From: Flavobacteriales bacterium
Lineage (GTDB): Bacteria; Bacteroidota; Bacteroidia; Flavobacteriales_F; PHOS-HE28
Direction: 5' to 3'
Assembly: GCA_041391785.1 (NCBI GenBank)
Contig: JAWKNI010000007.1
Location: 144,556 to 208,555 of the forward strand
Length of the DNA stretch: 64,000 nucleotides
Made by a program: the position numbers and the translations under genes. Position 1 is the stretch's first letter. Each line of letters opens with the position of its first letter. This document shows, piece by piece, positions 2,891 through 60,451 of the stretch. The notes under the pieces are model-generated. The model worked only from the letters and a program-made list of their open reading frames with translations. It was not told the DNA's origin and searched no databases.

Positions 2891-4845
2891 CGGTGCGGCG
2901 AACAGGGAGGCGGAAGGACGCTGAATGCACAATGCGAGCGCCCCATCGGTGCCTGCATCCGGTGGTTGCACAAGGGTGACATCGTCACCGTGCTGCGGAC
3001 GACATGGTGCACGGGGGCGGCACACGATGTGTACGTGTACACACCAGCGAGATCCGCTGCCGGGTCGATCGAGCCCGCCGGGCACGGGCACTGGGCCGGA
3101 CCAGGTTCCGCCGGCATCAGGTGTAGCCTGTGAGGATGGAGAACAGATCGGCGCTGGCTGCGGAGTGCAAAGGGTGAGTGCTCCGGCGACCGGATCCGAC
3201 AGGACCACATTCACGGTGACCGTCGCACTGGCGAGGGGCAGGGCAGAACCGATCCCGTGTAGGTGTAGTCACCGGCGGCCATCGTGGCCGGATCGAAGAG
3301 CCCACCGATCACCGGTGAAGGTCCGGACCATGATCCACCGGCATCCGGCGTGCCGCCAAGTTGCCCCAGCAATGGCACGGGTGGACTTGTGCACATGCCC
3401 GTCGGTGCCTGCATCTGCCGGAGTGTTGATGGTGACGGTCACATCGGCGCTCTCATCGGGGCACGGCGCTGTGCCAGGGACGGTGTACGTGTAGACGCCG
3501 GGGTTCATGGTCGCTGGATCGACATACCACCGACCACTGCACTCGGTCCGCTCCAGGTTCCGCCTGCATCAGGCGTGCCACCGAGTTGCGCGAAGAGGTC
3601 CGCCGCACCATCGTTGGAGCAGAGGCGATCGCCCCGTCGGTCCCCGGATCGGGCGGTGTGTTGATCGTGACATCCACCGTGGCGGAGACATCGGGGCACG
3701 GAGCGGTACCGGCCACGGTGTACACGTAGGCACCGGAACTCATCGTTGCCGGGTCGATCGACCCGCCGACCACCGGGCTTGGGCCGCTCCAGGTTCCGCC
3801 TGCATCAGGTGTACCGCCGAGCTGTGCGAAGAGATCGGCAGGGGCATCGCTGCTGCACAGGGTGATGTTCCCATCGGTGCCTGCATCTGCCGGAGTGTTG
3901 ATGGTGACGGTCACATCGGCGCTCTCATCGGGGCACGGCGCTGTGCCAGGGACGGTGTACGTGTAGACGCCGGGGTTCATGGTCGCTGGATCGATCATAC
4001 CACCGACCACTGCACTCGGTCCGCTCCAGGTTCCGCCGGCATCAGGCGTGCCACCGAGTTGCGCGAAGAGGTCCGCCGCGCCATCGGTGGAGCAGAGGGT
4101 GATCGCCCCGTCGGTCCCCGGATCGGGCGGTGTGTTGATGGTGACATCCACCGTGGCGGAGACATCGGGGCACGGAGCGGTACCGGCCACGGTGTACACG
4201 TAGGCACCGGAACTCATCGTTGCCGGGTCGATCGACCCGCCGACCACCGGGCTTGGGCCGCTCCAGGTGCCGCCTGCATCAGGTGTACCGCCGAGCTGTG
4301 CGAAGAGATCGGCAGGGGCATCGCTGCTGCATAGGGTGATGCTCCCGTCGGTGCCTGCATCTGCCGGAGTGTTGATGGTGACGGTCACATCGGCGCTCTC
4401 ATCGGGGCACGGCGCGCTTCCATTCACGGTGTACGTGTAGACGCCGGGGTTCATGGTCGCTGGATCGATCATACCACCGACCACTGCACTCGGTCCGCTC
4501 CAGGTTCCACCGGCATCAGGCGTGCCACCGAGTTGCGCGAAGAGGTCCGCCGCAGCATCGGTGGAGCAGAGGGTGATCGCCCCGTCGGTCCCCGGATCGG
4601 GCGGTGTGTTGATCGTGACATCCACCGTGGCGGAGACATCGGGGCACGGAGCGGTACCGGCCACGGTGTACACGTAGGCGCCGGAACTCATCGTTGCCGG
4701 GTCGATCGACCCGCCGACCACCGGGCTTGGGCCGCTCCAGGTTCCGCCTGCATCAGGTGTACCGCCGAGCTGTGCGAAGAGATCGGCAGGGGCATCGCTG
4801 CTGCACAGGATGATGCTCCCATCGGTGCCTGCATCTGCCGGAGTG
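2281..4845 (-). repeat. Tandem near-identical 474-bp (158-aa, i.e. 2x79 aa) coding repeats inside the adhesin gene. Two families, units at 99-100% nucleotide identity.
   Basis: 2281-2416 is identical to 2755-2890 (136/136). Units at about 3640-4114, 4114-4588 and 4588-4845 encode the same 158 aa three times with 2-3 substitutions. More diverged 79-aa repeats continue on both sides (about 200..5330). Confidence 0.85.
2891..3640 (-). pseudogene. Frame-disrupted stretch of the same adhesin gene: at least four small indels inside near-identical repeat copies. Likely sequencing or assembly error, less likely genuine decay.
   Basis: The local copies differ from intact neighbours by 1-bp indels. 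Example: 3601-3640 vs 4075-4115 (agaggcgatcgcc vs agagggtgatcgcc). Example: 3515 (ggatcgacatacc vs ggatcgatcatacc). Example: 2891 (gccgttccggtgcggcg vs gccgttcagcgcggcg). ORFs 2801..3214 and 3269..3508 begin in the true repeat frame and then run into junk. Confidence 0.6.
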
Positions 4846-7736
4846 TTGACCAAAATGGTCAGTGTGGCCTCATTATTCGGGCAGGTACCCATGCCAAGGA
4901 CGGTGTATGTGTAAATACCACCCATGTGCACGGCTGGATCGAATCCGCCGGTGAACTCGGCGCCGCTAGGATCCGACCATTCGCCACCACCTTCGGGCGT
5001 ACCCCCGAGCTGCCCTTGCAATGGGAACGGTGCGTCCGTCGCGCATACCATGATGCTGTTGTCCGTGCCGGCGTTCGGCGGCGTATCCTCAGTGACCGCG
5101 ACCGTTGCTGTCGCATTCGGGCAGGGAGCCATCCCGGTCACCGTATAGGTATACGTACCGGGTGCATGCACCGCCGGGTCATAGGTTCCAGGGAAGGCTC
5201 CGCTTGGTCCGCTCCACGTTCCACCGGCCATCGCCCCTCCGCCCAGTAGTGGGAACAAGTCCTGTGCGCCATCGCTGCTGCACACGGCCAGGCTGGTGGG
5301 TGTCCCCGCGTTGGGCAATGCCGAAACAGCCACAGTTACGGTGGAACTCACCGGCGCACCGCACGCTCCTGCGCCTCCCACCGTGTAGGTGTAAACACCG
5401 ATCGGATCGACCCCTGGCATGAAGTTCCCTGAATGGGCCGCTCCGCCCGGGGCCGTCCAGGTCCCACCGGCCGTTGGCGTGCCACCCAGTGCTGCGAACA
5501 ATGCGGTGGCCGGGGCATCCGCGCACAGCACCACAGAGCCGTCCGTTCCTGCATCACCGGATTGATCCACTGTGATCGTCACACAATCCGTTGAACTGCA
5601 GTCCGGGTGTCCGACCTGATGGACCGTTACGCAGTACTGGGTCGTTCCCGACACGGCGGCGATCGGGTTCGCGATGTTCGGATCGCTGAGGCCTGCGGTC
5701 GGCGACCAGCTGTACACATAGGCACCGCCCGGGCAATTCGCCACACCTGACCATGCCAACCCACCTCCGGGCCCCTGCGGCGATGCGTACAGCACACCAC
5801 CTGTCGCGTTGAAAAGGGTATACGATTGCTCTCCGTTGTAGATGTTACCGGTGGTATAGCTCACGGAAATGGTGCTGCCGGTCGATACCGGGATGTTCAC
5901 ACTTCCCTGCGAGCCTCCTGTCAGCCAGTACGAGGTGGATACACCATTCACAGTGATCACCACACGCGAGTTGTTCGAGCCCAGACCCAGGATGCCGGTC
6001 CAACCGTCGTTGGCCGAGTCGTACATCGTAAGCACGTACGTACAATTCGTGGGGAACCCGCCACTGACCACGCTTGCACCCAGCTGCACCGGCGTATTGC
6101 AGGTGCTCGCATCCGGTCCTGCGGAAACGACCGGCCCGGGGATGATGGTCACGGCGAGCGTCGTGTCGTAGTCACAACCGAAATTGTCCGTTACATGGAA
6201 GGTATAGTCGTAACTGCCGGTTGCGGGAGGCGTGACGCATGCCTGGCCACAATTCGCGCTTGTGCTGGAGATGTCCGGACCGGTCCAGTAACTGCTGTCG
6301 CAGGTCGCCCCATACACCGGTGTGAATTCGATCAGGTCGTCGTACAGCGAAGGGTCGAAGTCGATGCTCCAATCGCATACGAAACCATTGTCGGATGTCC
6401 ACAGGTCACAGATCTGCAAGGTCCAGGTGCCATTCAATTGCGATCCCAGCAGACCGTTCAGGTTGTTCAAGCTCTCGTAGGTACCGCTGGGCAATGTGCC
6501 GCCAGAGTTGTCCACCCAGGTGCCGTTCGTGGCCGTCGGACTGAAGCAATACTGAAAACAGGTGCCTTGCACATTGGGCGTATTGTCGTTGTCCACTGGA
6601 ATGCCCAGGAAGGTGTTACCTCCGTTCTGCTGATGCATCGTAACACTCTCGCCTGTAGGGCTGATGATGTTGACGACCAGGTCACCCATGTATGAATGTT
6701 CCATGTTGATGCAGATCGACAGCAGGTCATTCACCGAATTGAGTGTCTGGCCGGGGGCGAACTGCGTGAAGGTGATCTGTGAATCGAAGCACTCGCCAAC
6801 GTTGTCCGGCAGGAAGATGCCGCCACCCAGGTCCGTGTCCGGAAGTTCATTCCACGTTGTTCCTGTCACCACGCCATCAAGGCACAAGGTCTCACCCGCG
6901 CACCCGGTAAGGGTTCCCCCCGTCCCGGTGAAGGTCGGCGGTGTGCCCACCATGGTGACCAGATCCACGAGGTTCGTGCTGGCGCAGCCGTTGTCATCCA
7001 ACAGGTACAACTGTGCGGTGTAAGCACCAGGTTCCGCATACGTATGCGAAACGGAAGCACCTGCGTTGTTGAGGATCGTCCCATCCCCGAAGTCCCAACG
7101 ACGGGAGGCGATACCGAAACCGGGCGCGGCGAATGACCCACTGCTGTTGAATGTGACCGCTTCCCCCGGACAGATCAATTGCGCGCCGGCGCTTCCATGA
7201 GTGGCCACCGCCGTCGGGCGCTCGCAGGGCTGGTAACAGGTGATCGCTGCGGCGAATACCCCGAGCCCGGTGTTGTTCGAGTGAAAGACGATCGTCAGGC
7301 AGCCGGAGGGGTTGGATGCGGACGCCGAGATCACCTGCCCCTGCAGGCCATTGCCGGTCCAGTTGCCCATTGTCGGTGCCGCTGTACTGTTCCCATCGTG
7401 AATGGTCATGTTGTCGATCGGTGCAGCACCGTTCGTGGCCAGGTTGAAGGTGATCCAGTTCAGCGAGATGGCCCCACCGGGCGTATCCGGGCAGATCGTG
7501 TAGGTGATGTTCTCATTGTTCGAGTAGCCACCCGCGCCCTGCCCACCACTGTCCAACAGCGCCCCGGCGCATGTCGTGGCCGTTCCATTGAAAATGGTGA
7601 ATGCCTGGCCGTGGCAATGCGTCCAATGGCTTAGGAATGCCAAACCCGTGACCAGCAGGAACAGCAGTGGGCGCCGGTTCCGGATATTCTTTTGGAATAT
7701 GCTGTGGGACCTTTCCGCAGTGCTCTGGACAGGCAT
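3453..7736 (-). CDS. Giant secreted cell-surface repeat adhesin, N-terminal 1427 aa. Signal peptide, CUB-like domain, PKD domain, proprotein-convertase P-domain, then tandem 79-aa Ig-like repeats. Likely a T9SS type-B cargo whose CTD lies beyond the window.
   Basis: ATG at 7736 (the track's M1 at 7751 is TTG), followed by [38 protein letters not shown]...[10 protein letters not shown] is CUB-like. RWDFGDGT is [29 protein letters not shown]...[25 protein letters not shown] is a P-domain. Repeats follow of the form [12 protein letters not shown]...YTYTV..APCPD..A.V.VTIN. The ORF ends at 3453 only because of a frameshift near 3627. Confidence 0.8.
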
Positions 7737-7920
7737 TGTTCGCTTCCGCAACAGTGGTGGGAATGTTGAAAAGCGTGCGTAAAATAGTCTTCGTAACCGC
7801 CTGATCCACAGATGGGACCGCCTTTTGGACGAACACCCATTGGTTGATGATGGATCAAGGGGATCGAATGATGAATGCCTGCTTCGCGCAGGTGGAGTTA
7901 CCGATCATCGATCCACTGGA

Positions 7921-7946
7921 ACAAGAAAGGCCCTTGCATGAGGGCC
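7921..7946 (-). terminator. Intrinsic terminator after adhesin 2 (hairpin ggccct-tgcatg-agggcc, T-run on the minus strand).
   Basis: 6-bp GC-rich stem at 7929-7946. Minus-strand 3' flank is tttcttgt. Confidence 0.4.
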
Positions 7947-7969
7947 GTTCTTGATGATGGGAGGGAGGA

Positions 7970-10900
7970 CTACTTGACCAACGTCACATGGCCCACCAAC
8001 TCCTTTCTGGTCTCCGCTCCATCCACCTCGAAGCGTATGAGGTAGGGGAATACTCCTGGTGGTAGGATCTCGCCTCCGTTGTTTGCACTGCCCAGCCATG
8101 GCTGGTAGGGATCGGTGGTGGAATAGATCACCTGGCCCCAACGGTCGAAGACATACATCTCAAAATCACTGACAGCCGGCACGTTCGAGCTCATCCCCCA
8201 CGCATCATTGATCCCATCACCGTCCGGTGTGAATGCGTTCGGAACGTATGTGAAAAGAATATCATCGATCGTGATGTCGTGGCAGGTGGTGTCGACGCAC
8301 TGGTTCGTGTTCCAAGTCACCAGACAGACAGTGTACACCCCGGGTTCGCGGTCCGAGAACCGGAATTCGGTGTTCTGGTCGGTGGTGCTGAAGAGCCCCG
8401 CGATATCCCATTGGTAGCTGTTCGAGCCTGTCGAGGTGTTGAAGAAGCGGATCGTCGGATCGTTGATGTTCGCAGGGATCGGGCCCCAGGCGAAATCCGC
8501 TTCGACCGGTGGTGGGCCTGTTACGGTCACAGTGCCATCACCCGAACACCCATCGGCATTGCGGATCGAAACACTGTACACCCCCTCACAGGCATTCATC
8601 AATACCGCTTCCGGAGACCAGCTGGCCCCGGCATCATAGCTGTAACTCACCGCTTCGGTGTCCTGGATCTGTACCGTGCCATCACAATCCCCGGAACAGG
8701 TCACGGGTGTGCTTTGCACTGCATCGATCTCCAACTGCACAGGTTCCGAGATCACGACCGATGCGTCATTCGAGCAACCGTTGTCATCACTCACCGCAAG
8801 TCCGTAGGTGCCGGCGCACAACCCTGAAATGTCCATGAGTCCCGGGCCGGCATCTCCGTTGGACCAGGCATAGGAGAGGTCGGTCGCTGCATTACCACCA
8901 ATGACCGTGGCGCTGGCGGTTCCGTCACAGGCTGCGTTGCAGACGGCATCAGTCCATGTCAGGTCGATCACGATGGGGTCCGTCAGGGTCATTTGTACAC
9001 TATCAACAGTGTTGCAGAACGCACCATCGTTCTCCCGCCAGTAGAACCAATGTGTACCACCGCTTCCAACTGGAAGGGTCACAGTGGTCTGCGGAGCACC
9101 GGCATTTGCGAAGACAGCGCCCGCCGGCCCGGTCCATTGCCCCACACCGGTGTTGCCAGGGGTCGCATTCAGCCCGATGCTCAGCGTGCATGAGAAGTCC
9201 GGTTCACCTGCATCAGGAACACCGCAGCATGTGGGGTCGTTCGCAGGTATCACAGTGATATCCAAGGTCGCGTTCGCCACACAACCCGCAGGGCTCGTCA
9301 CGGTGTACACGTAAGTTCCCGAACTTCCGGTGGTGGGGTCGAAGGCATTGGGAATTACCGCACCGGTGGCCGTGGTCCAGGTGCCCCCCGCATCAGGGGT
9401 GCCGCCCAACGAGTCCGTCAGCTGTACGACCGAGGCCGTTGCACAGATGAGGAATGCAGCATCCGTCCCCGCATCGATGGAGGGATCCGGGCCGACCAGA
9501 ACACTGTCCACCACGGCGCATTCCGGATGGCCCACCGGATAAGCCGTCAGGTAGTACCAGGTCGGCGTCGTGGTATAGACTTCCGTGGTCAGGCTTGTGG
9601 GATCGGTAAGCCCGGTGGCCGGGCTCCACACGTATTCCGCAGCTCCGGTGCCGCCACCACAGGTTATCGTTCCGGAGTACAACTGCCCGTTCGACGGGCC
9701 ATTGCCCGATTGAAAAACGTTGTTCCCCTGGTCATTCAGCAGTATGAAGGAGTTCTGGTTGTTGTTCAACCCAAGTGGCGCACCGGTATAACTGATCGTG
9801 ATCGGAGCGCCGGCCGATACAGGTATGTTGAAGGTCGAGAATCCCCCGGCCGCCAGGGTGTATGTATTGGATGTACCGTTCACGACCACCATCACGCTGG
9901 CCTGGCCTAAGAGACCGCCCCATCCATCGTTGGCGGTGTCGAACAGGTTCAACACGTAGGTACAGTTGGCACTTCCGGCATTCAGCAACTGTCCGGCCAT
10001 GGGTTCAGGATCGCTGCAGAGAACGATGTCCGGACCGGCTTCGATCTCCAGCGGCTCCGCGATCGTGAAGGTCACCGTGGTATCGTAGGAGCAGCCGAAG
10101 TTGTCCGTAACGACGAATGTGTACTGATAGTCGCCAGGACCTGTGGGGGTCGCGGTAGCGCTCAGCGGGTCGTTCGGGTCAGTTGTGAGGAATGGTCCGG
10201 ACCACGCAGCCGAATCCGGTGTGGAGCCCATGATCGGAGTGAATTCGACAAGGTCCGGGTACAGGTCCGGGTCGAAGCTGATGTCCCAGTCGCACAGGGA
10301 GCCATCATCCGCGGCCCACAGGTCCACCACGGTGAACGTCCAGGTGCCATTCAATGGGCAACCAACGAAACCGTTCATCGGATTCTCGCTCTCGTAGGTC
10401 CCGGCCGGAAGGGTGATGTTCCCACCGTTGTCGTCCCAAGTGCCATTCGTCGCACTCGGGCTCCAGCAATATTCCCAGCACGTGCCGATCGTTCCGGTGC
10501 TGGGGTCGCCAAGATCCATTCCACCCCCTCCTTGTTGTGTGAAGGTGACGGATTGCCCGTTCGGACAACTCGCAGAGATCACCAGGTCCCCTACGAACGT
10601 GTGCTCTAAACTGGCGCAGATGGTCAACAGGTCGTTCACATCGAGCAACGTCTGCCCTGGGTCGAACTGCGTGAATACGATCTCGCTGGTGAAGGGCACG
10701 CCCTGCAGGTCCGGCAATTGGACCGAAGGCCCGAAGTTGTTCTCCGGTTCGCTGGACCATGTGGTGCCCGCTACTACGGCGGTGAGGTCGATGGTCGCAC
10801 CCAGACAGGTCTCGGTACTGCCCACCGTTCCTTCAAAGGTCGGTGTCGTGCTCACCAGTACCTGCAGGTCCACCAACTCGGAACTGACGCAGTTGTTGTC

Positions 10901-11587
10901 ATCCAACAAGGTCAACTGCACCACATATTCGCCCGGCTCGCTGAAGGAGTGTTGTGCATTCTGTGTGGAAGCGGTCGTGCCATCGTCGAAATCCCAGGTG
11001 TATTGGGTGATGTTGAAACCCATGGCGGCGAATGAGCCGGAACCATCGAACGAAACGACCTCATCAGTGCATACCAAAGCGGGTGCGGCTTCACTCATGA
11101 ACGCGACCGGTATCGGCCGCTCACACGGCTCGTAACACGTGATCACCGCAGCGAATACCCCGGTGCCCGTGTTGTTGGATGTGAATTGCACGGTAAGGCA
11201 ACCGGTCGGGTTCGTGGACGACCCGGAAGTGACCTGCCCCTGGAGGGAATTGCCACTGTAATCCCCGATCAACGGGGCGCTCGTGTTGTCCCCATCATAG
11301 ACCCGGATATGGTCGATCGGTGCTGTCCCGGCAGTGCTCAGGTTGGCGGTGATCCATTGCAAGGAGATCGCACCACCAGGTGTATCCGGACAAACGACAG
11401 CGGTGTAATTCTCATTGTTCCCATATCCACCTGCGCCCTGTCCACCGCTATCCAACAAGGCCCCTTCACAGGCATTTATCGCACCCTGATCGATCTGGTA
11501 GGTGGTCTGGGCCACAAGTTGGGTCGTGGCTGCAAATACCAGCACCGATGGAAAGATGCCTCGCAATTGGAATATCCGCTCGATCAT
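7970..11587 (-). CDS. T9SS type-B-sorted SprB-repeat adhesin (1205 aa). Signal peptide, CUB-like domain, PKD domain, P-domain, SprB repeats, and a gliding-motility-type C-terminal domain.
   Basis: ATG at 11587: MIERIFQLRGIFPSVLVFAATTQLVAQ is a signal peptide (the upstream 53 codons of the track ORF are unlikely). The N-terminal 350 aa are paralogous to the 3453..7736 protein ([17 protein letters not shown]...ITCYEPCERP, YTWDFDDGT, and the P-domain ...GTWTFTVVDLWAADDGSLCDWDISF). SprB repeats are present (DLSYAWSNGDAGPG...CAGTYGLAVSDDNGC). The C-terminus VPNAFTPDGDGINDAWG...FEMYVFDRWGQVIYST matches the T9SS type-B CTD (TIGR04131-like). Confidence 0.85.
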   Translation of the reverse strand: MIERIFQLRGIFPSVLVFAATTQLVAQTTYQIDQGAINACEGALLDSGGQGAGGYGNNENYTAVVCPDTPGGAISLQWITANLSTAGTAPIDHIRVYDGDNTSAPLIGDYSGNSLQGQVTSGSSTNPTGCLTVQFTSNNTGTGVFAAVITCYEPCERPIPVAFMSEAAPALVCTDEVVSFDGSGSFAAMGFNITQYTWDFDDGTTASTQNAQHSFSEPGEYVVQLTLLDDNNCVSSELVDLQVLVSTTPTFEGTVGSTETCLGATIDLTAVVAGTTWSSEPENNFGPSVQLPDLQGVPFTSEIVFTQFDPGQTLLDVNDLLTICASLEHTFVGDLVISASCPNGQSVTFTQQGGGGMDLGDPSTGTIGTCWEYCWSPSATNGTWDDNGGNITLPAGTYESENPMNGFVGCPLNGTWTFTVVDLWAADDGSLCDWDISFDPDLYPDLVEFTPIMGSTPDSAAWSGPFLTTDPNDPLSATATPTGPGDYQYTFVVTDNFGCSYDTTVTFTIAEPLEIEAGPDIVLCSDPEPMAGQLLNAGSANCTYVLNLFDTANDGWGGLLGQASVMVVVNGTSNTYTLAAGGFSTFNIPVSAGAPITISYTGAPLGLNNNQNSFILLNDQGNNVFQSGNGPSNGQLYSGTITCGGGTGAAEYVWSPATGLTDPTSLTTEVYTTTPTWYYLTAYPVGHPECAVVDSVLVGPDPSIDAGTDAAFLICATASVVQLTDSLGGTPDAGGTWTTATGAVIPNAFDPTTGSSGTYVYTVTSPAGCVANATLDITVIPANDPTCCGVPDAGEPDFSCTLSIGLNATPGNTGVGQWTGPAGAVFANAGAPQTTVTLPVGSGGTHWFYWRENDGAFCNTVDSVQMTLTDPIVIDLTWTDAVCNAACDGTASATVIGGNAATDLSYAWSNGDAGPGLMDISGLCAGTYGLAVSDDNGCSNDASVVISEPVQLEIDAVQSTPVTCSGDCDGTVQIQDTEAVSYSYDAGASWSPEAVLMNACEGVYSVSIRNADGCSGDGTVTVTGPPPVEADFAWGPIPANINDPTIRFFNTSTGSNSYQWDIAGLFSTTDQNTEFRFSDREPGVYTVCLVTWNTNQCVDTTCHDITIDDILFTYVPNAFTPDGDGINDAWGMSSNVPAVSDFEMYVFDRWGQVIYSTTDPYQPWLGSANNGGEILPPGVFPYLIRFEVDGAETRKELVGHVTLVK

Positions 11588-11701
11588 GAATGTCTTTCGA
11601 TGTATCCGGCACGTGCCGATGGGTGCAAAGATCGCCGCCCATGGCGACTCGTTCGTGTTGGTTCTGCCGTTAGGATGGGATCCCAACACAATTGGTTGCC
11701 T

Positions 11702-11737
11702 CACAAAAACGAAAAGAGCCCGGAATGCCGGACTCTT
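11702..11737 (-). terminator. Imperfect hairpin plus T-run downstream of the anti-sigma-like gene (possible attenuator ahead of adhesin 2).
   Basis: agagcccgg-aatg-ccggactct is a 9-bp stem with one mismatch. Minus-strand 3' flank is ttcgtttttg. Confidence 0.35.
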
Positions 11738-11758
11738 CTCGATCAATTCGTGATCGGC

Positions 11759-13012
11759 TCAGCGCAGCAGGCCGATCGTACCGTTGTATGATCCCCCGAG
11801 TTTTTCGCCGTCCTTCATTTCAACCATCCACATGTAGTCGCCAGTGGCACACATCTCGCCACGGTTGCCGATGCGCCCGTTCCACGGACGGGTGTGGTCG
11901 GAGGTCTCGTACACGAGCTGGCCGCTCTTCGCGTCGAAGATCGACAGGTGGAACTTGACCCCGAGGGTCTTCAAGGCCTCTGGGATGAACACATCCTCCA
12001 GACCATCTCCATTCGGGGAGAACGTGTCCTGCGCCAGAAGGTCATAATCATTATCGATCTTGATCTTCTGTTCGAACCGGTCCACGCAGCCGTTCTCATT
12101 CGTCACGGTCAGGGACACGGTGTAGGACCCTTTCTTCTTGAAGACATGGTCCGGATGGGCGATCGTTGAGGAAGTGCCATCCCCGAAGTCCCAGACGTGA
12201 TCGTGCCCGCCCTGGCTGCGGTTCTCGAAATGAACGGACGGGACCGTGTTGTCGTACTCCTGTTTCAAATGATTGAAGGCCGCATCGGGTGCTTCATGGA
12301 TCACGATCAGGTCAGAGGCGGGTTTGTTCTGGATATTGCCACCACCCATGGAGGAGTGGGACAGCATCACCTCGTACTTGCCGGCCTTGCTGAAGGTGTG
12401 CGAGGGCTTGGGCTTGTTCGAGAAACTGCCGTCACCGAAGTTCCAAAGGTGCATTCCGGTCCTGGGCATGTTCTCCACATCGAATTCGATGGTGGTACCG
12501 GGGCAACCTTCGGTGACACTGGGGCGGATCGAAACGGCCGTGCTCGCAGCCTCGGGTCCATCCGGACCGTCCGTGCCTGTGATCGCGGTCACCGCTACCG
12601 TCGAGGGCTTATCGTGCGACCCCTTCGATGGGGCCTTCGCCACGTCTTCATCGGCCGTGCTCATTCCCTCACCGGCATCCTTGGCCACCACCGGCTCTCC
12701 GTCCGCACTGCTGTCCAAGGCGCTAGGGGTCACAGACGCCGGCTCGATCTCCAGCTGTGGCGCCTGAATGACAGCGACCTCGCCACTGCCGACCGGGTCC
12801 GGCACCAACATCTGCAATGTGGTGGCAACGGCCAGGCCGCCTCCGAGCAGGAGGACGAATAGTGCCGCGGAAGAATGCCAGGAGGATCGCTTGTCCTCAT
12901 CCAGGCGTTTCTCCAACTGCGCCCAATCGGACGAGTTGTACGGCACCTCATACGGCTCCAAGGCCTCCTTCAACGACCGTTCAAATGCATCCTGACCCTT
13001 CATGTTCCTCAT
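11759..13012 (-). CDS. Single-pass membrane protein. 48-aa cytoplasmic N-terminus, TM helix, Ala/Pro/Ser-rich linker, two PKD domains, and a T9SS type-B C-terminal domain. Putative anti-sigma factor for the upstream ECF sigma.
   Basis: The start is 3 nt after the sigma-factor stop. AALFVLLLGGGLAVATTL is the TM helix. HLWNFGDGSFS and HVWDFGDGTSS are PKD motifs. The C-terminus FSPNGDGLEDVF...FHLSIFDAKSGQLVYETSD...WNG...GDYMWMVE is a type-B CTD. No ZAS motif. Confidence 0.7.
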   Translation of the reverse strand: MRNMKGQDAFERSLKEALEPYEVPYNSSDWAQLEKRLDEDKRSSWHSSAALFVLLLGGGLAVATTLQMLVPDPVGSGEVAVIQAPQLEIEPASVTPSALDSSADGEPVVAKDAGEGMSTADEDVAKAPSKGSHDKPSTVAVTAITGTDGPDGPEAASTAVSIRPSVTEGCPGTTIEFDVENMPRTGMHLWNFGDGSFSNKPKPSHTFSKAGKYEVMLSHSSMGGGNIQNKPASDLIVIHEAPDAAFNHLKQEYDNTVPSVHFENRSQGGHDHVWDFGDGTSSTIAHPDHVFKKKGSYTVSLTVTNENGCVDRFEQKIKIDNDYDLLAQDTFSPNGDGLEDVFIPEALKTLGVKFHLSIFDAKSGQLVYETSDHTRPWNGRIGNRGEMCATGDYMWMVEMKDGEKLGGSYNGTIGLLR

Positions 13013-13015
13013 CCA

Positions 13016-13615
13016 TTAGTGGAGCTTACGCTCCTGGGTAAGCAATTTCTTCAAGTTGTGCTTGGCCTTGGCAAGGTTGCTCTTCGATGTGCCGATGTTG
13101 ATCCCCAAAAGATCGGCGATCTCCTTGTGGGTCAACTCTTCGAATACGTAAAGGTTGAACACCGTCCTGTAGGCCGGTGTCAACTTCTGCATCGCATTGA
13201 TCACATCCGCAGGCTTCACCTCCCACTCCTGCTCCTGTTCCTCCTCCGCCAGGATATCCTCTTCATCCTGGTCGGCGAAATCCTCGATGCTCCGCTCTTC
13301 CCCCAACAGGAGATAGGAGTTCTTCGTTCGTCTGAAATGATCGATCGCCGTGTTCACCATGATCCGGCGTATCCATCCCTCGAAGGAACCGGCACGATTG
13401 AACTTATCCATGCTGCGGAAGACCTTGATGAATCCGTCCTGCAGGATATCCTTTGCCTGATCGGCATTCTTCGTGTACCGCAGGCACACGGCCATCATCT
13501 TGCCGTAGAACAATTCGTACACCCGCTGCTCATAGCGGCGATCACCGCGCAGACAACCATCGATCACCTCCGCGTAGGAACGCTCGGTGTTCTCCGTGTT
13601 GAGCCAGGACACCAT
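13016..13615 (-). CDS. RNA polymerase ECF-type sigma-70 factor (about 199 aa).
   Basis: Region 2 is ELFYGKMMAVCLRYTKNADQAKDILQDGFIKVFR. Region 4 is TPAYRTVFNLYVFEELTHKEIADLLGINIGTSKSNLAKAKHNLKKLL. ATG at 13615 chosen (MVSWLNTENTERS...). The track ORF extends to 13747 through poor sequence. Confidence 0.85.
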   Translation of the reverse strand: MVSWLNTENTERSYAEVIDGCLRGDRRYEQRVYELFYGKMMAVCLRYTKNADQAKDILQDGFIKVFRSMDKFNRAGSFEGWIRRIMVNTAIDHFRRTKNSYLLLGEERSIEDFADQDEEDILAEEEQEQEWEVKPADVINAMQKLTPAYRTVFNLYVFEELTHKEIADLLGINIGTSKSNLAKAKHNLKKLLTQERKLH

Positions 13616-13870
13616 CAGGCGTGGGCCGCTCTGCATATCGGTGGGTCTATCGACCGAACGAATGGACATGGATGACTGCAATGTAGCCATACTTGACGGT
13701 AAGACGCAAGATCCGGAAAAGGATGCCTGCCGCTTTCTACGTACCACTCCAGGGGACCTGCCAAGGTCGATCCCAAGGGCCAGCGGGATCGTTTACTTTC
13801 GTGCCGTCAAGTCGGTACATACGCGTACGGACAAGGATCTTCAACTCAATCCCTCAATCGTCAGTCAACT

Positions 13871-14938: not shown

Positions 14939-17200
14939 TCAACGCACCACCACCAGGCGCTGTGGAACGGAGATCCCACCGCTTTCCCAACTCACGAAGT
15001 ATACCCCACTGTTCAGCCCCCGCACGTCCATTCGTGTCAGGGCGGAGTTCGCACGGGTCCGCATCAATTCCTGGCCAAGTCCGTTGCGGATCACCCATGT
15101 GCCTGGGGCTGATGGGCCGTTCAACACAAGCTCCACGGTGTTCGTGGCTGGGTTCGGGATGATGCTGAAGAGTATTCCGGAACCATCTCTGGCACCACCG
15201 ACGCTCAGCAGGTCATCACTGCTCCAGTAGGACAGGCCGCCGCGCAGATTCCCGAGCACCATGTCAGGCTTGCCATCCCCATTGAAATCGAACAGGCAGG
15301 GCGCGGTACGCTCCCCTTCACGCAGGTCCATGAAGGTGCTGTCCAACAAGGTCCAGGTCCCGGTGGGGTCCTCCTCGATGCTTCCATAGTGGTACAACCA
15401 TCCGGATTCAGAGCCAAGTAGCATTTCCCGGTCACCGTCCACATTCCGGAAGAGTGCGGGCACGGAGTGGCCGGTCACGTTCGGTGCGACCACGGTCAGC
15501 ACACCACCAAGATCCTCCGTGATCAAGGTCCAGGTCGGTGCACTGGCCGAACCGGTATTGCGGTAGTAGTTCAGGTTCCCGTTCCGCTCGCCAATGATCA
15601 GGTCCTGCAGGCCATCCTCGTCGAGATCGGTGAACAATGGAGTCGCGAACTGACCCACATCGATCGCATCCCCAGTGCCGTCAACCACGTTGGCCTGTGC
15701 CAGTTGGAATTGGGCCACGGGGCCTGTGCTGATGTTCCTGTAGAAATGTATGCGACCCAGCAGGTCGCCGATGTACATGTCCATATCCCCGTCACCATCC
15801 AGATCGCTGAAGGCAGGATAGAAGGATGATCCGATCCCGCTGGAGCTGAGACCCATGTAGTCATCCGTAACGAATTCGAAGGCTGGCGCCAGGGCGGTGC
15901 CCGTATTCCTGTAGTAGGCCATCCTTCCACTGTACTGGTCAGGAGGGACGAAATAGCCATAATTGGATACCAGCAGATCCATCCTGCCATCGCCATCGGC
16001 ATCAAAGGCCACCGGGTAGGCCCCTTCACCGTGTTCAAGCATACGGTCCTGAAAGAGGTTCTGCTGCACGAATTCGAAGTCCGGGGCGGCATCCGTACCA
16101 ACGTTCCTGTAATACCACATGCTCGCGGTGTTGTGGGCCAGCGAAGTGGCACTCGGGCTGCAGATCAGGTCCCGTCTCCCATCGTTATCCACATCCTCAT
16201 AGTAGGCTCCGGGGAAGATGGCCAGGTCCACCGATTGGTCATCGCTCGGGAAGTCGGTATCCACCGCGGTCATGAAGGCGAGGTCCACCGTGCCACCATT
16301 GTACAAGCCCACAAGGTTGTTGTACGCGATGTCACCGATCAATAGATCCTTGTCCAGGTCCCCATCCAGGTCAAGTGCAAGCACGGTGCTGCCCGCGTGC
16401 GCTTCCGCCTTGGCGATGGCTGCCGCGATCTCTTCGTCATTCGTACCCATTTCAGGTGCCGGTACATTCGGTGAACAAGGCGCGTTCAACTCCACCGTGT
16501 TGTTGTTGGCGTTCTCCACGAAGGAACCCCAGCACTTGTTCCGAAGCTCGAACTTGAGGCTGTCGCACGTGCCATACAACTCCATGCTCAGGTTCTTGTG
16601 GTACTCCATCAGTGAACCGACCAGGCTGAAGGTCAGCAGGTCGAGGTCGCCGTCGCCATCCACGTCCTCGATCGCAGGCAGGTCGACGGCCGAGACGTAC
16701 AGGTTCACCACCAACGAGGCACCACTCGGGGATACGTAGTTGGAGAAGGTGCGGAAGGGAGCCGCTTGTTCGAATGCGATCCCATCCGGTCCACTGGTGT
16801 TCTTGTATACGGTGAAACCCGCGCTGGTGTAAGCGAAGATGTCCTCCTTGCCATCGCAGTTGTAATCCCGGAAGAGCACCCAATCGTGCAACTCCTTGAA
16901 CGGGTGAACGTCATCGTACTCGCGTGAGATCCGATACGCCATGGGACCGCTCGCACCGTTGTTCAGGAGCGTAATGAAAGAATTGCCGGAGCGATCGAAC
17001 AGGAAGAGGTCCTTCAGGCCATCCCCGTTCAGGTCGATATCGCTCACTTGAACGAAGTTCGCTCCCCCGGCCCAGGCAAGGTCCAATGTCTGGCCCTGGC
17101 GGGTCACCGGAACGGACCCGTCGAAATAGAGGTTCCATTGGGCCTGCACGGCCACGGACTGGACCACAAGGAGCGCGAAGAGCAGTGGGTTCTTGGACAT
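14939..17200 (-). CDS. FG-GAP/VCBS repeat (integrin-alpha-like) secreted protein with a T9SS type-A C-terminal sorting domain.
   Basis: ATG at 17200: MSKNPLLFALLVVQSVAVQAQ is a signal peptide. Repeated FDxDGDGxxDL motifs are FG-GAP-like. The C-terminus SIIPNPATNTVELVL...GVYFVSWESGGISVPQRLVVVR is a Por_Secre_tail. Confidence 0.8.
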   Translation of the reverse strand: MSKNPLLFALLVVQSVAVQAQWNLYFDGSVPVTRQGQTLDLAWAGGANFVQVSDIDLNGDGLKDLFLFDRSGNSFITLLNNGASGPMAYRISREYDDVHPFKELHDWVLFRDYNCDGKEDIFAYTSAGFTVYKNTSGPDGIAFEQAAPFRTFSNYVSPSGASLVVNLYVSAVDLPAIEDVDGDGDLDLLTFSLVGSLMEYHKNLSMELYGTCDSLKFELRNKCWGSFVENANNNTVELNAPCSPNVPAPEMGTNDEEIAAAIAKAEAHAGSTVLALDLDGDLDKDLLIGDIAYNNLVGLYNGGTVDLAFMTAVDTDFPSDDQSVDLAIFPGAYYEDVDNDGRRDLICSPSATSLAHNTASMWYYRNVGTDAAPDFEFVQQNLFQDRMLEHGEGAYPVAFDADGDGRMDLLVSNYGYFVPPDQYSGRMAYYRNTGTALAPAFEFVTDDYMGLSSSGIGSSFYPAFSDLDGDGDMDMYIGDLLGRIHFYRNISTGPVAQFQLAQANVVDGTGDAIDVGQFATPLFTDLDEDGLQDLIIGERNGNLNYYRNTGSASAPTWTLITEDLGGVLTVVAPNVTGHSVPALFRNVDGDREMLLGSESGWLYHYGSIEEDPTGTWTLLDSTFMDLREGERTAPCLFDFNGDGKPDMVLGNLRGGLSYWSSDDLLSVGGARDGSGILFSIIPNPATNTVELVLNGPSAPGTWVIRNGLGQELMRTRANSALTRMDVRGLNSGVYFVSWESGGISVPQRLVVVR

Positions 17201-17361
17201 GATCGATCGATATTCCGGGCAAAGTTCGTCACTTTCACTTCCCTTCACCATCCATTCCAACGACCGTCCACGGGCGCCCAAGGTTGGGTGGTCCGGACAC
17301 CATGCTGACCAACTCCGGCAAGGGTTCTTCCGAAGGGCCCGCTGGCGATGGGCAACAACGC

Positions 17362-17392: not shown

Positions 17393-20300
17393 ATGCAGAA
17401 TAGAGGCGCGCTATGGATCTTCACCATTCTTCTGGCGCTCGCGTGCTTGTGGCAATTGTCCTTCTCATTGTTCACATCGCGATTGGAGACCAAAGCCCGC
17501 GTGGAAGCCGGCTATTCGGTGGATTCATTGCAGGAGGCCAACCCCGCCACGGCCGACCTGGACCGGGATTCGCTGGAGCTGATCTACGAGAACCGTTACC
17601 TCAGGGCGCACAGCGAGGATGAGATCTATCCCGTATTCGGTTACAGTTATGCCGAGTGCAAGGCACGTGAGATGAACCTGGGCCTTGATCTCAAGGGCGG
17701 TATGGCGGTCACTTTGGAAGTGAGCGTACCGGAATTGGTGGTGAACCTGAGCGAGAACAGCAAGGATCCCGCTTTCGTGCAGGCCATCGCGAACGCACGT
17801 GAACGGCAGAAGGATGCCACCTCCGATTTCATCACGCTATTCGGTGAGGAATACGCGAAGATCCCCGGCCGCGGCCCGCTCTCGGCCATCTTCTACACAC
17901 CCGAGCGCAAGGACATGTTCGATCGGGAAGGTTCGGATGAGGACTACCTGGCAGCATTGCGGAAAGAAGCGGATGCCGCGTTGAACAACACCGAACGTAT
18001 CATGCGGACCCGTATCGACAAGTTCGGTGTCGCACAACCGGTGATCCAGAAGCAGAGCTTCACCGGAAGGATCCAGATCGAACTCCCTGGTGTGAAGGAC
18101 AAGGATCGTGTGCGCAAGGTGTTGCAGAGCACAGCGAATCTTGAGTTTTGGGAGACGGTGGACAATGAGACCGTATTCCCGGTGTTGCAACAGGTCAATG
18201 ACCGCTTGGGTGCCATGGCTTCGAATGACACCACCGTGGCCGCCGATGGAGGGTTCGGGCGCACCCTTTCCACCGGCGTTGAGGTGAAGGGTGCTTCCAC
18301 CGGCGTGGAGAGCAGTGTGATCGGATTCCTGGAGAGCAATGCCCCTGTGGACAAGACGACTTGGTTCAACTTCGACCGGGTGACGTTCGCCAGTGGCAGT
18401 GCGGATCTGGTGCCGGACAGTTCCGATGAGCAACTGTCCAACCTGGTGGAGATCCTGAAAGCCTACCCGGAGGTTCGCCTGAAGATCGGTGGCTACACCG
18501 ATAATACCGGGAATGATGCGGCCAACTTGAAGCTCTCTCAGGATCGTGCGGATGCTGTGCGCAATGCACTGGTCGCAAAAGGGGTCGCAGGTGACCGCCT
18601 TGAAGCAGAAGGGTACGGGTCGCAGCATCCGGTCGCGGACAATGCCACGGCTGAGGGCCGTGCGCAGAACCGCCGCATGGCGCTACGTGTGCTGGCCACC
18701 GGAGCCGATACCGCCACTGCCGTGACCGACTCTGCAGAGGTGGATACCACCAATGCCGAAATGACCGAAGCCGAGCGTGCCGAATTGCTGCGCAAGAACC
18801 CGTTGTTCGCATTGCTGCAGCCCACCAACCAGGCTAAAGGACCGGTCGTGGGCAGTGCACGTGTTGCCGATACGGCGCAGGTGAACACCATGCTCCGCTC
18901 GGCCACCATGCGGTCCTTGTTGCCTGCCGATACGCGCCTCGCCTGGAGTGCAAAACCACAGACATTCGACCTGCAGGATGGGGGCAAGGCACAGTTCCTC
19001 AGCCTGTATGCATTGAAGGTCCCGCGCGGTGGAAAGCCGCGACTGGACGGGAGTTCCATCGTGAATGCGAACCAGGATTTCGATGTGAAGGGCGAGGTCG
19101 AGGTGTCCATGCAAATGAACCCTGAAGGTGCCCAGACCTGGAAGCTGATGACCGGTGAGAACGTGGGACGACAGGTGGCCATCGTGCTGGATGACCTGGT
19201 GTACAGCGCGCCGGTCGTGCAGACCGAGATCGCGGGTGGGCGCTCCACCATCTCCATGGGTTCCGGTGACCTGAACAAGCAGATCCAGGAGGCGGATGAC
19301 CTTGCGAACATCCTGAAGGCAGGGGCCCTTCCTGCTCCGGCACGGATCATCGATGAGACCGTCGTTGGACCGTCCCTCGGCAAGGACAACGTGAACAAGG
19401 GGTTGATGTCCTTCGGCATCGCCCTCCTCATGGTGCTCATCTACATGGTTCTCTACTATGCCCGCGCTGGTTGGGTGGCCGATCTGGCCCTCATCGTGAA
19501 CCTGTTCGTGCTGGTGGGAGCCCTTGCCTCGTTGCAGGCGGCTCTTACGTTGCCGGGCATCGCAGGTATCGTGCTTACCATGGGTATGGCCGTGGATGCA
19601 AACGTGCTCATCTACGAACGCATTCGGGAGGAATTGCGCCATGGCAAGATGATCAAATCGGCTGTGGACCTCGGATACAAGGGCGCCATGTCGGCGATCA
19701 TCGACTCCAACGTGACGACCTTGATCATCGCTGTGATCCTGTTGATCTTCGGCTCCGGACCGGTGCAAGGCTTCGCCACCACCCTGGGGCTTGGTATCCT
19801 CACCTCCCTGTTCACAGCCCTCTTCCTTTCACGCATGATCATCACCGGTTTGCTGGAGAAGGGCAAGGACTTCAAGGTGTGGAACAACTGGAGCAAGAAC
19901 GTGTTCGTGGGAGCGAACTACGACTTCATGAGCAAGCGGAAGTATTTCTACGCCTTCAGCGGGGTGATCATCGCGGCGGGCATCTTCTCCATGGTCACGA
20001 ACGGCTTCAACTGGGGCGTGGATTTCAGCGGTGGCCGTACCTACGTGGTGAAGTTCACCGATGGTGTGGATGTCGAAAGCGTCCGTTCCGCGTTGGAACC
20101 CAATTTCGTGACGGATGAGGGTGTGCAGAGCACCGTGAACGTCAAGACCTATGGCAGCGACCGCCAGATGAAGGTGACCACCAACTTCCTCTCCACCGAG
20201 GGTGGGACCGAGGTGGATGCCGTTGTGGATGAACGCCTGAATACCGGCCTGGCCACCTTGGGCAACGATTACGAGATCACCGAATCCCGCAAGGTGGATC

Positions 20301-20848
20301 CGACCATCAGCGATGACATCAAGACCAATGCGGTCACCTCCTTGGTCATCGCCCTTGCGCTCATCTTCGTTTACATCGCCTTCCGGTTCCGTAACTGGCA
20401 GTTCGGTCTTGGTGGCCTGCTGAGCCTGGTGCACGATGCATTGATCGTACTCGGCCTGTACTCCCTGCTGTACAAGGTGATGCCGTTCTCCATGGAGATA
20501 GACGAAGCGTTCATCGCTGCGATCCTGACGGTGATCGGTTACTCCATCAACGATACCGTGGTCGTGTACGACCGTATCCGAGAGTACCTGGGAGATCACA
20601 AACGGGAGGCTTATTCGGTGGTGATCAACAAGGCCATCAACTCCACCCTGGGCCGTACAATGAACATCTCGTTGACCACCTTGTTGGTGCTCTTCGTGAT
20701 CTTCTTCTTCGGCGGTGTTTCCATCAAGGGCTTTGTCTTCGCATTGTTGGTCGGTATCGGCGTCGGTACCTATTCCTCCGTATTCGTTGCCAGCGCCATT
20801 GTTACGGACCTGTTGAAAGGCAAGGACCCCGCAAGGACGGGCCAATAG
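17393..20848 (+). CDS. secDF: Protein translocase subunit SecDF (fusion), 1151 aa, with an OmpA-like peptidoglycan-binding domain inserted in the SecD periplasmic P1 region.
   Basis: SecD motifs are present (RIDKFGVAQPVIQKQSFTGRIQIELPGV; TM bundle LIYMVLYYARAGWVADLALIVN...). The SecF part follows (FVGANYDFMSKRKYFYAFS...). Residues about 322-440 carry a classic OmpA C-terminal domain (VTFASGSADL...IGGYTDNTGNDAANLKLSQDRADAVRNALVAKGV...NRRMALRV). Confidence 0.9.
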   Translation: MQNRGALWIFTILLALACLWQLSFSLFTSRLETKARVEAGYSVDSLQEANPATADLDRDSLELIYENRYLRAHSEDEIYPVFGYSYAECKAREMNLGLDLKGGMAVTLEVSVPELVVNLSENSKDPAFVQAIANARERQKDATSDFITLFGEEYAKIPGRGPLSAIFYTPERKDMFDREGSDEDYLAALRKEADAALNNTERIMRTRIDKFGVAQPVIQKQSFTGRIQIELPGVKDKDRVRKVLQSTANLEFWETVDNETVFPVLQQVNDRLGAMASNDTTVAADGGFGRTLSTGVEVKGASTGVESSVIGFLESNAPVDKTTWFNFDRVTFASGSADLVPDSSDEQLSNLVEILKAYPEVRLKIGGYTDNTGNDAANLKLSQDRADAVRNALVAKGVAGDRLEAEGYGSQHPVADNATAEGRAQNRRMALRVLATGADTATAVTDSAEVDTTNAEMTEAERAELLRKNPLFALLQPTNQAKGPVVGSARVADTAQVNTMLRSATMRSLLPADTRLAWSAKPQTFDLQDGGKAQFLSLYALKVPRGGKPRLDGSSIVNANQDFDVKGEVEVSMQMNPEGAQTWKLMTGENVGRQVAIVLDDLVYSAPVVQTEIAGGRSTISMGSGDLNKQIQEADDLANILKAGALPAPARIIDETVVGPSLGKDNVNKGLMSFGIALLMVLIYMVLYYARAGWVADLALIVNLFVLVGALASLQAALTLPGIAGIVLTMGMAVDANVLIYERIREELRHGKMIKSAVDLGYKGAMSAIIDSNVTTLIIAVILLIFGSGPVQGFATTLGLGILTSLFTALFLSRMIITGLLEKGKDFKVWNNWSKNVFVGANYDFMSKRKYFYAFSGVIIAAGIFSMVTNGFNWGVDFSGGRTYVVKFTDGVDVESVRSALEPNFVTDEGVQSTVNVKTYGSDRQMKVTTNFLSTEGGTEVDAVVDERLNTGLATLGNDYEITESRKVDPTISDDIKTNAVTSLVIALALIFVYIAFRFRNWQFGLGGLLSLVHDALIVLGLYSLLYKVMPFSMEIDEAFIAAILTVIGYSINDTVVVYDRIREYLGDHKREAYSVVINKAINSTLGRTMNISLTTLLVLFVIFFFGGVSIKGFVFALLVGIGVGTYSSVFVASAIVTDLLKGKDPARTGQ

Positions 20849-45159: not shown

Positions 45160-49485
<4,326 letters not shown>

Positions 49486-60311: not shown

Positions 60312-60401
60312 GATCTTGTTCGTTCTATTTGGTCAGGTCGAGCGCCCTACGTCAAGCGGTATGCCATCCGGCTTTTCGGTATGTCGGCCTGCCATCCATG
60401 C

Positions 60402-60428
60402 AAAAGCCCGCGTTGGTCGCGGGCTTTT
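60402..60428 (-). terminator. Intrinsic terminator after the lipoprotein gene.
   Basis: aaaagcccgcg-ttggt-cgcgggctttt is a 7-10 bp stem. T-run on both strands. Confidence 0.55.
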
Positions 60429-60451
60429 CTCATGTCAGATCGGCAGGTCCC

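Follow-up and report, generated by a model that had tools for sequence, protein, structure and literature searches.

A candidate Dma-like anti-sigma factor ending in a type-B sorting domain for the type IX secretion system in uncultured Flavobacteriales

The control of the expression of type IX secretion system (T9SS) cargo, and of gliding and adhesion proteins, is largely unknown in Bacteroidota beyond the PorXY-SigP pathway of Porphyromonas. A locus that bears on this subject lies in a stretch of 64,000 nucleotides from a Flavobacteriales bacterium (contig JAWKNI010000007.1 of assembly GCA_041391785.1, positions 144,556 to 208,555), which is called the window below and whose own numbering is used throughout. 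Directly behind a gene for an extracytoplasmic function (ECF) sigma factor, the window carries a gene whose product begins like an inner-membrane anti-sigma factor and finishes with a C-terminal domain (CTD) of the type-B class, which is normally found on proteins exported by T9SS.

The reading preferred here, based on sequence comparison and on analogy with the Dma proteins of Bacteroidota, sees in the protein an anti-sigma factor of Dma-like type that is aimed at the outer membrane and holds its sigma factor inactive. A probability of roughly 0.55 is given to this reading.

The anti-sigma-like gene and its sigma factor

The pair consists of the following features (aa, amino acids).

11759..13012, minus strand: anti-sigma-like gene, an open reading frame (ORF) of 417 aa with exactly these bounds
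12893..12991, minus strand: N-terminal cytoplasmic motif, a putative sigma-binding domain (aa 8-40), with two helices flanking E-V-P-Y-N-S-x-D-W
12809..12874, minus strand: predicted transmembrane (TM) helix, N-in (aa 47-68; 46-68 in the AlphaFold2 model), with a positive-inside bias
12539..12808, minus strand: disordered linker rich in A, V, P, S, D and G (aa 69-158)
12047..12538, minus strand: two PKD domains (aa 159-322), matched by Pfam PKD_4 and PKD in two stretches each, predicted local distance difference test (pLDDT) 80-95
11762..12046, minus strand: CHU_C domain, the T9SS type-B CTD (aa 323-417)
13016..13615, minus strand: ECF sigma factor gene, start uncertain (the ORF is open to 13747; homologues align from the M at 13615)

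The sigma factor scored 103.9 bits against TIGR02937 and matched both Sigma70_r2 and Sigma70_r4_2. Its ORF (13016..13747, minus strand) ends with a TAA that is separated by a gap of 3 nt from the ATG at 13012 (TAA-tgg-ATG). More than 1600 homologues of the 417-aa protein were retrieved, so that chance is excluded. Each of the best 120 is a full-length protein (400-455 aa, with an identity of 53-66%), and these 120 all derive from metagenome-assembled genomes named "Flavobacteriales bacterium" or from metagenome contigs. Full-length members occur in about 40 Flavobacteriales/Bacteroidota species, which makes the family widespread in environmental Flavobacteriales, with carriers that are almost all uncultured.

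Synteny was scanned in 80 loci, with one genome per species, considering those matches that included the N-terminus and had upstream sequence. In every considered locus (about 37, with 27-64% identity) an ECF sigma homologue was found to end just upstream on the same strand, and across these Flavobacteriales/Bacteroidota loci it is 41-84% identical to the sigma factor of the window. In 33 loci the start of the anti-sigma gene lies -11 to +35 nt from the stop of the sigma gene, and the two genes are translationally coupled. The anti-sigma role had been proposed in a sequence-only reading of the window, made without database searches, from position and topology; the coupling in 33 loci, and the presence of the sigma gene upstream of every full-length homologue for which upstream sequence exists, at identities of 27-66%, support it. 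The layout described in that reading, with a short N-terminus, one TM segment, PKD domains, a type-B CTD and an ECF sigma gene directly upstream, was confirmed by Pfam matches, the AlphaFold2 model, the charge bias and the 3-nt gap.

In an alignment of 22 orthologues the N-terminal residues L18, E22, V23, P24, N26, S27, D29 and W30 are invariant; conservation extends to the hydrophobic segment and, strongly, to both PKD domains and the CTD, and the roughly 100 residues after the hydrophobic segment cannot be aligned. Distant orthologues (27-33% identity) retain the pattern F-E-x2-h-K-x2-L-x2-h-E-h-P-[YF]-x4-W-x2-h-x3-L, followed by a TM segment. At the DNA level, residues 10-34 show differences of 0.23, 0.17 and 0.45 at codon positions 1, 2 and 3 (22 loci), a bias from which it follows that the stretch is translated; an N-terminus that is both translated and conserved in this manner is therefore unlikely to be a signal peptide. 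The approximately 45 conserved residues lead into an uncharged segment whose median length is 24 aa (range 19-29), and the count of K and R in 15 aa falls from 3.1 before this segment to 0.9 after it, which argues for an N-in anchor.

The AlphaFold2 model, built with 22 sequences, reached a mean pLDDT of 64.8. It shows helices at residues 5-18 and 27-39, the TM helix at 46-68, disorder at 69-156 and, after residue 156, two confident beta-sandwich domains followed by the C-terminal domain; pLDDT is below 50 for residues 41-156. Among 48 sequences the linker measures 80-142 aa (median 98), and its composition and length vary among orthologues. By our estimate, such a linker when fully extended would reach about 27-50 nm, enough for crossing the periplasm. 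The PKD domains were recovered by Pfam (PKD_4 with E 2e-26) and by Foldseek, at target-normalised TM-scores of 0.8-0.87. A Foldseek search of the whole model against PDB gave generic tandem PKD/Ig matches, including Aureispira GhpA, and none specific for the CTD.

Known families do not account for the N-terminal part. No Pfam family matched aa 1-169 at E<=10, no NCBIfam family covered the N-terminus in a scan of the whole protein, and the classical anti-sigma families zf-HC2, RskA, FecR and DUF4974 were not matched in the Pfam and NCBIfam scans. A profile of the N-terminus found no structural relative among PDB sequences; the matches that did appear were de novo TIM barrels, chance hits brought up by a short repeated "Y-x-S-D-D-W-x-x-L" string. 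Further copies of the motif were not found in the window.

A motif shared with outer-membrane barrel proteins

The motif has a wide distribution outside the window. When an N-terminal profile of 71 positions was compared with 1.84 billion representatives, 421 representatives were found at E<=1e-3. The top 150 motif carriers differ in their C-termini: 68 end in an OMP_b-brl_2 barrel, 33 in PKD plus CHU_C, and 49 in other ways, being mostly fragments. The motif consensus is essentially equal in the CTD-type class and in the barrel, or OMP-type, class. Both barrel-type members that were examined follow a 196-aa ECF sigma factor which is, over its full length, 43-45% identical to that of the window. 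An NCBIfam scan of barrel-type and multi-repeat relatives placed the motif in no family, and a cluster look-up of ten OMP-type proteins returned one from Saprospiraceae and otherwise metagenome proteins. The window protein itself has no C-terminal OMP_b-brl_2 8-stranded barrel by Pfam, and beta-sandwich domains are seen in its AlphaFold2 model.

In many relatives of both classes the 33-aa motif stands in 2-7 tandem copies, occupying up to about 290 aa before the TM segment. This raises the possibility that a single anti-sigma factor binds several molecules of sigma factor, or other partners. Examples of tandem motifs outside the window are P0122, P0130, P0137, P0143 and P0195. In the barrel-type relatives a further element, R-R-R-h-x3-K-x2-E-A-A-h-h-L-L-L, is conserved in the stretch that leads from the motif to the TM helix; the CTD-type family lacks it.

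An architecture of this kind has been characterised experimentally. Pardue and others (2024) described Dma proteins, which are annotated as OMP_b-brl_2, are encoded with an ECF21 sigma factor, and have a cytoplasmic region at the N-terminus, followed by a TM helix, a long disordered tether and, at the C-terminus, an 8-stranded barrel (PMC10927553). In that study Dma1(1:40) pulled down the sigma factor Das1, while full-length Dma1 was located in membranes, and outer-membrane vesicles contained C-terminal fragments; a span across both membranes was shown, and the authors propose proteolysis triggered by a signal (PMC10927553). By analogy with the Dma1(1:40)-Das1 pair, aa 8-40 of the window protein would be expected to bind its sigma factor (PMC10927553).

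The window protein resembles Dma in its position right after an ECF sigma gene, its short N-terminus, predicted to be cytoplasmic, its single TM helix, its long disordered tether and a C-terminal module that would be destined for the outer membrane, and both types are restricted to Bacteroidota. It differs in that the 8-stranded barrel is absent and its position is occupied by two PKD domains together with a T9SS type-B CTD, so that the route to the outer membrane would be T9SS with a PorP/SprF shuttle and not the beta-barrel assembly machinery (BAM). It also differs in that its neighbouring, presumably regulated genes encode giant adhesin-like proteins with type-B CTDs, and not NigD or vesiculation genes. 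On these comparisons, the protein can be described as a putative Dma-like anti-sigma factor with a PKD-PKD-type-B-CTD cargo mimic where Dma has its barrel, a variant that is undescribed in the literature searched: full-text searches found no paper joining an anti-sigma factor with a type-B CTD, and T9SS domains are mentioned neither in the Dma study (PMC10927553) nor in its 2025 follow-up.

It had been remarked in the sequence-only reading that an inner-membrane-anchored T9SS substrate is topologically paradoxical. The paradox proves to have been overstated, since it has a precedent: the same motif heads outer-membrane-barrel proteins behind a related ECF sigma factor, and the published Dma architecture spans both membranes (PMC10927553).

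The C-terminal module, the putative promoters and the cargo genes

Downstream of the pair lie two large genes, called cargo genes here, and several regulatory elements.

7970..11587, minus strand: cargo gene 1, a secreted protein of about 1205 aa with a signal peptide, PKD, P-domain and type-B CTD
1..7751, minus strand: cargo gene 2, a giant PKD/P-domain adhesin-like paralogue, larger than cargo gene 1 and extending past the window edge
13701..13727, minus strand: putative ECF-type promoter of the sigma/anti-sigma operon, GGCATCC-N13-GCGTCTT
11710..11741, minus strand: intrinsic-terminator-like hairpin with a 14-bp stem and a T-run, after the anti-sigma-like gene
11672..11700, minus strand: second ECF-type promoter-like element, GGCAACC-N15-CCATCCT, before cargo gene 1

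The C-terminal end of the anti-sigma-like protein is closely comparable with that of its neighbour. PF13585 (CHU_C, the type IX secretion signal domain) scored 43.6 bits against a cut-off of 27 over aa 328-404, at the extreme C-terminus. Residues 258-417, comprising the last PKD domain and the CTD, align to the last 160 residues of the cargo gene 1 product with 29% identity (E 2e-23), without large gaps and up to the C-terminal residue. The cargo gene 1 product matched Pfam PKD_4, P_proprotein and CHU_C (56.8 bits), and with 43.2 bits stands above the cut-off of TIGR04131. The PKD-PKD-CTD module is thus probably a paralogue or mimic of the secretion end of the neighbouring cargo.

Type-B CTDs are recognised by PorP/SprF-like outer-membrane shuttles, to which the cargo stays bound (PMC9143113, PMC12618676). 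Like type-B cargo of the SprB and Fjoh_3952 type (TIGR04131 / PF13585), the window protein has CHU_C at its very C-terminus with PKD domains before it. Unlike such cargo, it appears to have a conserved cytoplasmic domain and an anchor instead of a cleavable signal peptide, it is small at 417 aa, it has no adjoining PorP/SprF gene that could be found, and its CTD falls below the TIGR04131 cut-off. In the profile searches that the sequence-only reading had called for, PKD was recovered, TIGR04131 stayed narrowly under its cut-off and no anti-sigma N-terminal family was matched.

The geometry AAC/ATC-N16-CGT is that of an ECF promoter. The strict promoter pattern was found once in the 64-kb window against 0.19 expected, solely at the sigma gene, and GGCATCC-N13/14-GCGTCTT stands upstream of the sigma gene in most of 21 aligned orthologous regions and also in L084, a locus on a 2.3-Mb contig. 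More distant orthologues carry GGCAACC-N14-GCGTCT close to the start codon, and in two Dma-like loci (L081, L082) GGCAACC-N15-(A/T)CGTTTT occupies the equivalent place with the same -35 box. A further box, ATGGCTAYCTTG, is seen at about 13679..13690 (minus strand), 10-15 nt downstream of the ECF-type -10, and recurs upstream of the sigma gene in nearly all orthologous loci. This box is similar to the TAnnTTTG / TAnnTTGY -7 box of Bacteroidota (motif names from PMC9723704) and may belong to a second, housekeeping-type promoter.

The hairpin behind the anti-sigma-like gene, together with TTTTTG, is kept in 14 orthologous loci and in L084. Such a terminator after the pair groups the anti-sigma-like gene with the sigma gene and sets it off from the adhesin genes. 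Directly after the terminator, 14 aligned loci have GGCAAC(C)-N15/16-GCATCAT, of which GGCAAC and CATCAT are conserved, and L084 has the variant AGCAAC...GGTCAC. The -35 box of this element equals that of the sigma promoters. Relaxed promoter patterns are no rarer in the window than chance, and the evidence for the cargo promoter is therefore its conservation across species. On this conservation, the same sigma factor may drive its own operon and the cargo genes. After cargo gene 1, at 7880..7965 (minus strand), a terminator-like hairpin GGCCCT...AGGGCC with a T-run is followed by AGGCATTC...CCATCATCA; here, before cargo gene 2, the ECF-type promoter may occur for a third time, with its two boxes farther apart.

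Downstream, most loci have one or two genes homologous to the large cargo gene. In L084 the gene order is SecDF-OmpA, FG-GAP protein, malate dehydrogenase (mdh), sigma, anti-sigma-like gene and three CHU_C proteins of 1266, 874 and 3664 aa, of which the 874- and 3664-aa proteins stand at the position of cargo gene 2. In the window, mdh is likewise upstream of the sigma gene, divergently transcribed.

Possible mechanism, alternatives and other features of the window

On the preferred reading, the two-helix motif at the N-terminus (aa about 5-40) would sequester the co-translated ECF sigma factor in the cytoplasm, at the inner membrane, where the N-in helix (aa 47-68) would anchor the protein. 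The disordered linker of about 90 aa would cross the periplasm to the outer membrane, where T9SS or a shuttle of the PorP/SprF type would meet the PKD-PKD-type-B-CTD module. Some change at the outer end, such as engagement, translocation, competition by cargo or surface contact, would then lead to cleavage of the linker and intramembrane proteolysis, and the freed sigma factor would activate its own promoter (GGCATCC-N13-GCGTCTT) and the similar promoter before the type-B-CTD cargo genes. The topology in vivo, the T9SS engagement, the proteolytic release and the regulon are what we infer from the comparisons above. Regulated proteolysis, or the sensing of T9SS or of PorP/SprF availability, both of which the sequence-only reading had suggested, are plausible.

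Several points weigh against this reading. The likeness to Dma was traced through proteins of Dma architecture; a profile of OMP-type N-termini aimed at Bacteroides Dma1 or at named organisms gave no match. A difficulty for the reading is that an inner-membrane-anchored chain would have to stay threaded through or beside the T9SS translocon. TIGR04131 (T9SS type B sorting domain) gave 31.8 bits over aa 328-407, just below its cut-off of 35, and the family motif, the consensus of which we take to be "NRWG", reads "AKSG" here while the adjacent cargo has "DRWG"; the CTD may therefore be a binding domain that is no longer a secretion signal. The -10 box of the cargo promoter differs from that of the sigma promoter, the spacing differs by 1-2 nt, and the element is degenerate in the window. 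Finally, a PorP/SprF gene was found neither among the large ORFs of the 64-kb window nor within 10 kb in L084. There are known cases of orphan type-B substrates served by a distant shuttle (PMC12618676).

A further step, which is possible but can be advanced only tentatively, is that T9SS engages and translocates the C-terminal module of the inner-membrane-anchored anti-sigma factor, so that sigma activity becomes a direct read-out of T9SS or shuttle activity. A single chain would in that case extend from the cytoplasm through the secretion system up to the cell surface, or the pull of the motor would tear it or bring about its cleavage, and the system would amount to a FlgM-like secretion checkpoint for type-B adhesins on a Dma chassis. 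More generally, the motif would serve as a module to which "decoy substrates" of outer-membrane machines are joined, namely barrels in the case of BAM and CTDs in that of T9SS.

FlgM, the anti-sigma factor of sigma-28, is a soluble protein that is exported whole by the flagellar type III system. The analogy is functional alone, an anti-sigma factor bearing the export signal of a machine whose late substrates the sigma factor controls, with no sequence relationship; as the window protein, unlike FlgM, appears membrane-anchored, its release would need proteolysis. In the FecR/FecA/FecI system, an inner-membrane anti-sigma factor communicates through its periplasmic end with an outer-membrane protein. 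The window protein would be similar to FecR in contacting an outer-membrane partner with its periplasmic end, and differs from it in that FecR, DUF4974 and zf-HC2 domains are absent, no TonB-dependent transducer lies nearby and the contact would be made by a secretion-signal domain. T9SS biology offers the example of PorA (PGN_0123), a protein of Porphyromonas gingivalis which has a type-A CTD and passes a signal on to PorXY-SigP (PMC7712824). Both cases have a T9SS-CTD protein involved in the control of an ECF sigma factor for T9SS-related genes, although PorA is a separate surface protein with a type-A CTD that acts through a two-component system, whereas the CTD and the presumed sigma-binding domain are joined here in one polypeptide.

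The alternative that survives best, although it is unlikely, keeps the anti-sigma function and leaves the PKD-PKD-CTD module in the periplasm as a sensor that binds a PorP/SprF-type shuttle at its periplasmic face, a chaperone or the T9SS receptor of cargo. The sigma factor would then report the cargo load or the free shuttle capacity, in the manner of RseA/DegS sensing unassembled outer-membrane proteins, and the protein would not be secreted. The same anti-sigma evidence applies to such a sensor, the divergent CTD below the TIGR04131 cut-off mimics a cargo C-terminus, and no anchored chain needs to be threaded through the outer membrane. However, the sister proteins with the same motif end in a barrel that must insert in the outer membrane, as the Dma1 barrel does (PMC10927553). 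In addition, a linker with a median of 98 aa is far longer than a sensor close to the inner membrane needs, and the CHU_C domain, which scores above its Pfam cut-off, occupies the extreme C-terminus just as it does in true cargo.

It is improbable that the protein is a membrane-anchored accessory or scaffold for the assembly of giant adhesins, for example a tether recruiting the PorP/SprF shuttle or T9SS, with no effect on the sigma factor. This explanation draws on the conservation of the gene beside 1-3 giant type-B-CTD genes and on the C-terminal module that it shares with them. Nevertheless, a terminator stands between the gene and those of the adhesins, sigma-linked barrel proteins carry the cytoplasmic motif as well, and four loci (L022, L035, L038, L051) show no adhesin homologue in the sequence at hand, while the full-length homologues with upstream sequence all retain the sigma gene.

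Still less credible, and very unlikely in itself, is an ordinary secreted T9SS type-B cargo whose N-terminus is an extended cleaved signal peptide (compare the extended signal peptide region, ESPR, of autotransporters) and whose sigma factor merely regulates the cluster: the small residues L-A-V-A-T-T in the hydrophobic segment could fit a -3/-1 signal-peptidase site, an internal in-frame TTG start at codon 33 would yield a classical-looking signal peptide, and databases annotate the family solely as "PKD domain-containing" or "gliding motility-associated", but the TTG start is rejected by the coding constraint on residues 10-34, the most invariant part of the protein, and the 2-7 tandem motif copies of relatives, the length of the uncharged segment (19-29 aa), the unconserved A-x-A pattern, the strict translational coupling to the ECF sigma gene and the presence of the motif at the head of barrel proteins with an experimentally supported anti-sigma architecture all speak against this reading. 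A cleaved signal peptide, which the sequence-only reading had named beforehand as the outcome that would count against its own proposal, thus failed on the coding constraint, the invariant residues and the up to seven copies of the motif.

Should the protein prove to be a Dma-like anti-sigma factor, the dual-membrane anti-sigma principle would be extended from BAM-inserted barrels to T9SS, and a natural reporter of T9SS or shuttle engagement would become available. The unannotated 33-aa sigma-associated motif, which is in neither Pfam nor NCBIfam, could then serve to identify as anti-sigma factors hundreds of proteins that are now annotated as "hypothetical" or "PKD domain". The lineage may link the expression of adhesin genes to T9SS or to the outer membrane, and the fusion joins two active topics, Dma-type trans-envelope signalling and T9SS substrate recognition.

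Some other features of the window deserve mention. Cargo gene 2 is broken into the ORFs 3453..7751 and 1..3210 by an apparent frameshift; at the junction (3150..3480, minus strand) the repeat of PKD/P-domain proteins that ends in DYTYT runs on in another frame, and the two ORFs look like one giant adhesin gene with a frameshift. The gene rpoC, for RNA polymerase beta', is also found in two ORFs, 45190..46407 (plus strand) with Rpb1 domains 1-2 and 46457..49021 (plus strand) with domains 2-5. As this split of an essential gene by a frameshift or stop is most likely an assembly error, caution is advisable with the other frameshifts of the window.

Two genes upstream of the sigma gene, at 14939..17281 (minus strand), a 780-aa FG-GAP/VCBS-repeat protein carries a type-A T9SS CTD (Por_Secre_tail); it keeps its position in L084, and the region is thus rich in T9SS substrates of both types. 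SecDF (17393..20848, plus strand) is encoded as one fused protein of 1151 aa, in which a peptidoglycan-binding domain of the OmpA family (aa 331-427) comes after the N-terminal segment of P1 (SecD_1st, aa 199-254) and before the head subdomain of P1 (aa 548-648). This arrangement, which is unusual for SecDF, is kept in a second genome (L084, 2280..5723). Lastly, the ORF 58482..60455 (plus strand) matches PF10712 (NAD-GH) across its full length and has a strong negative AT skew; we take PF10712 to be a family often called antisense to other genes, and the skew suggests that the true gene may lie on the opposite strand.

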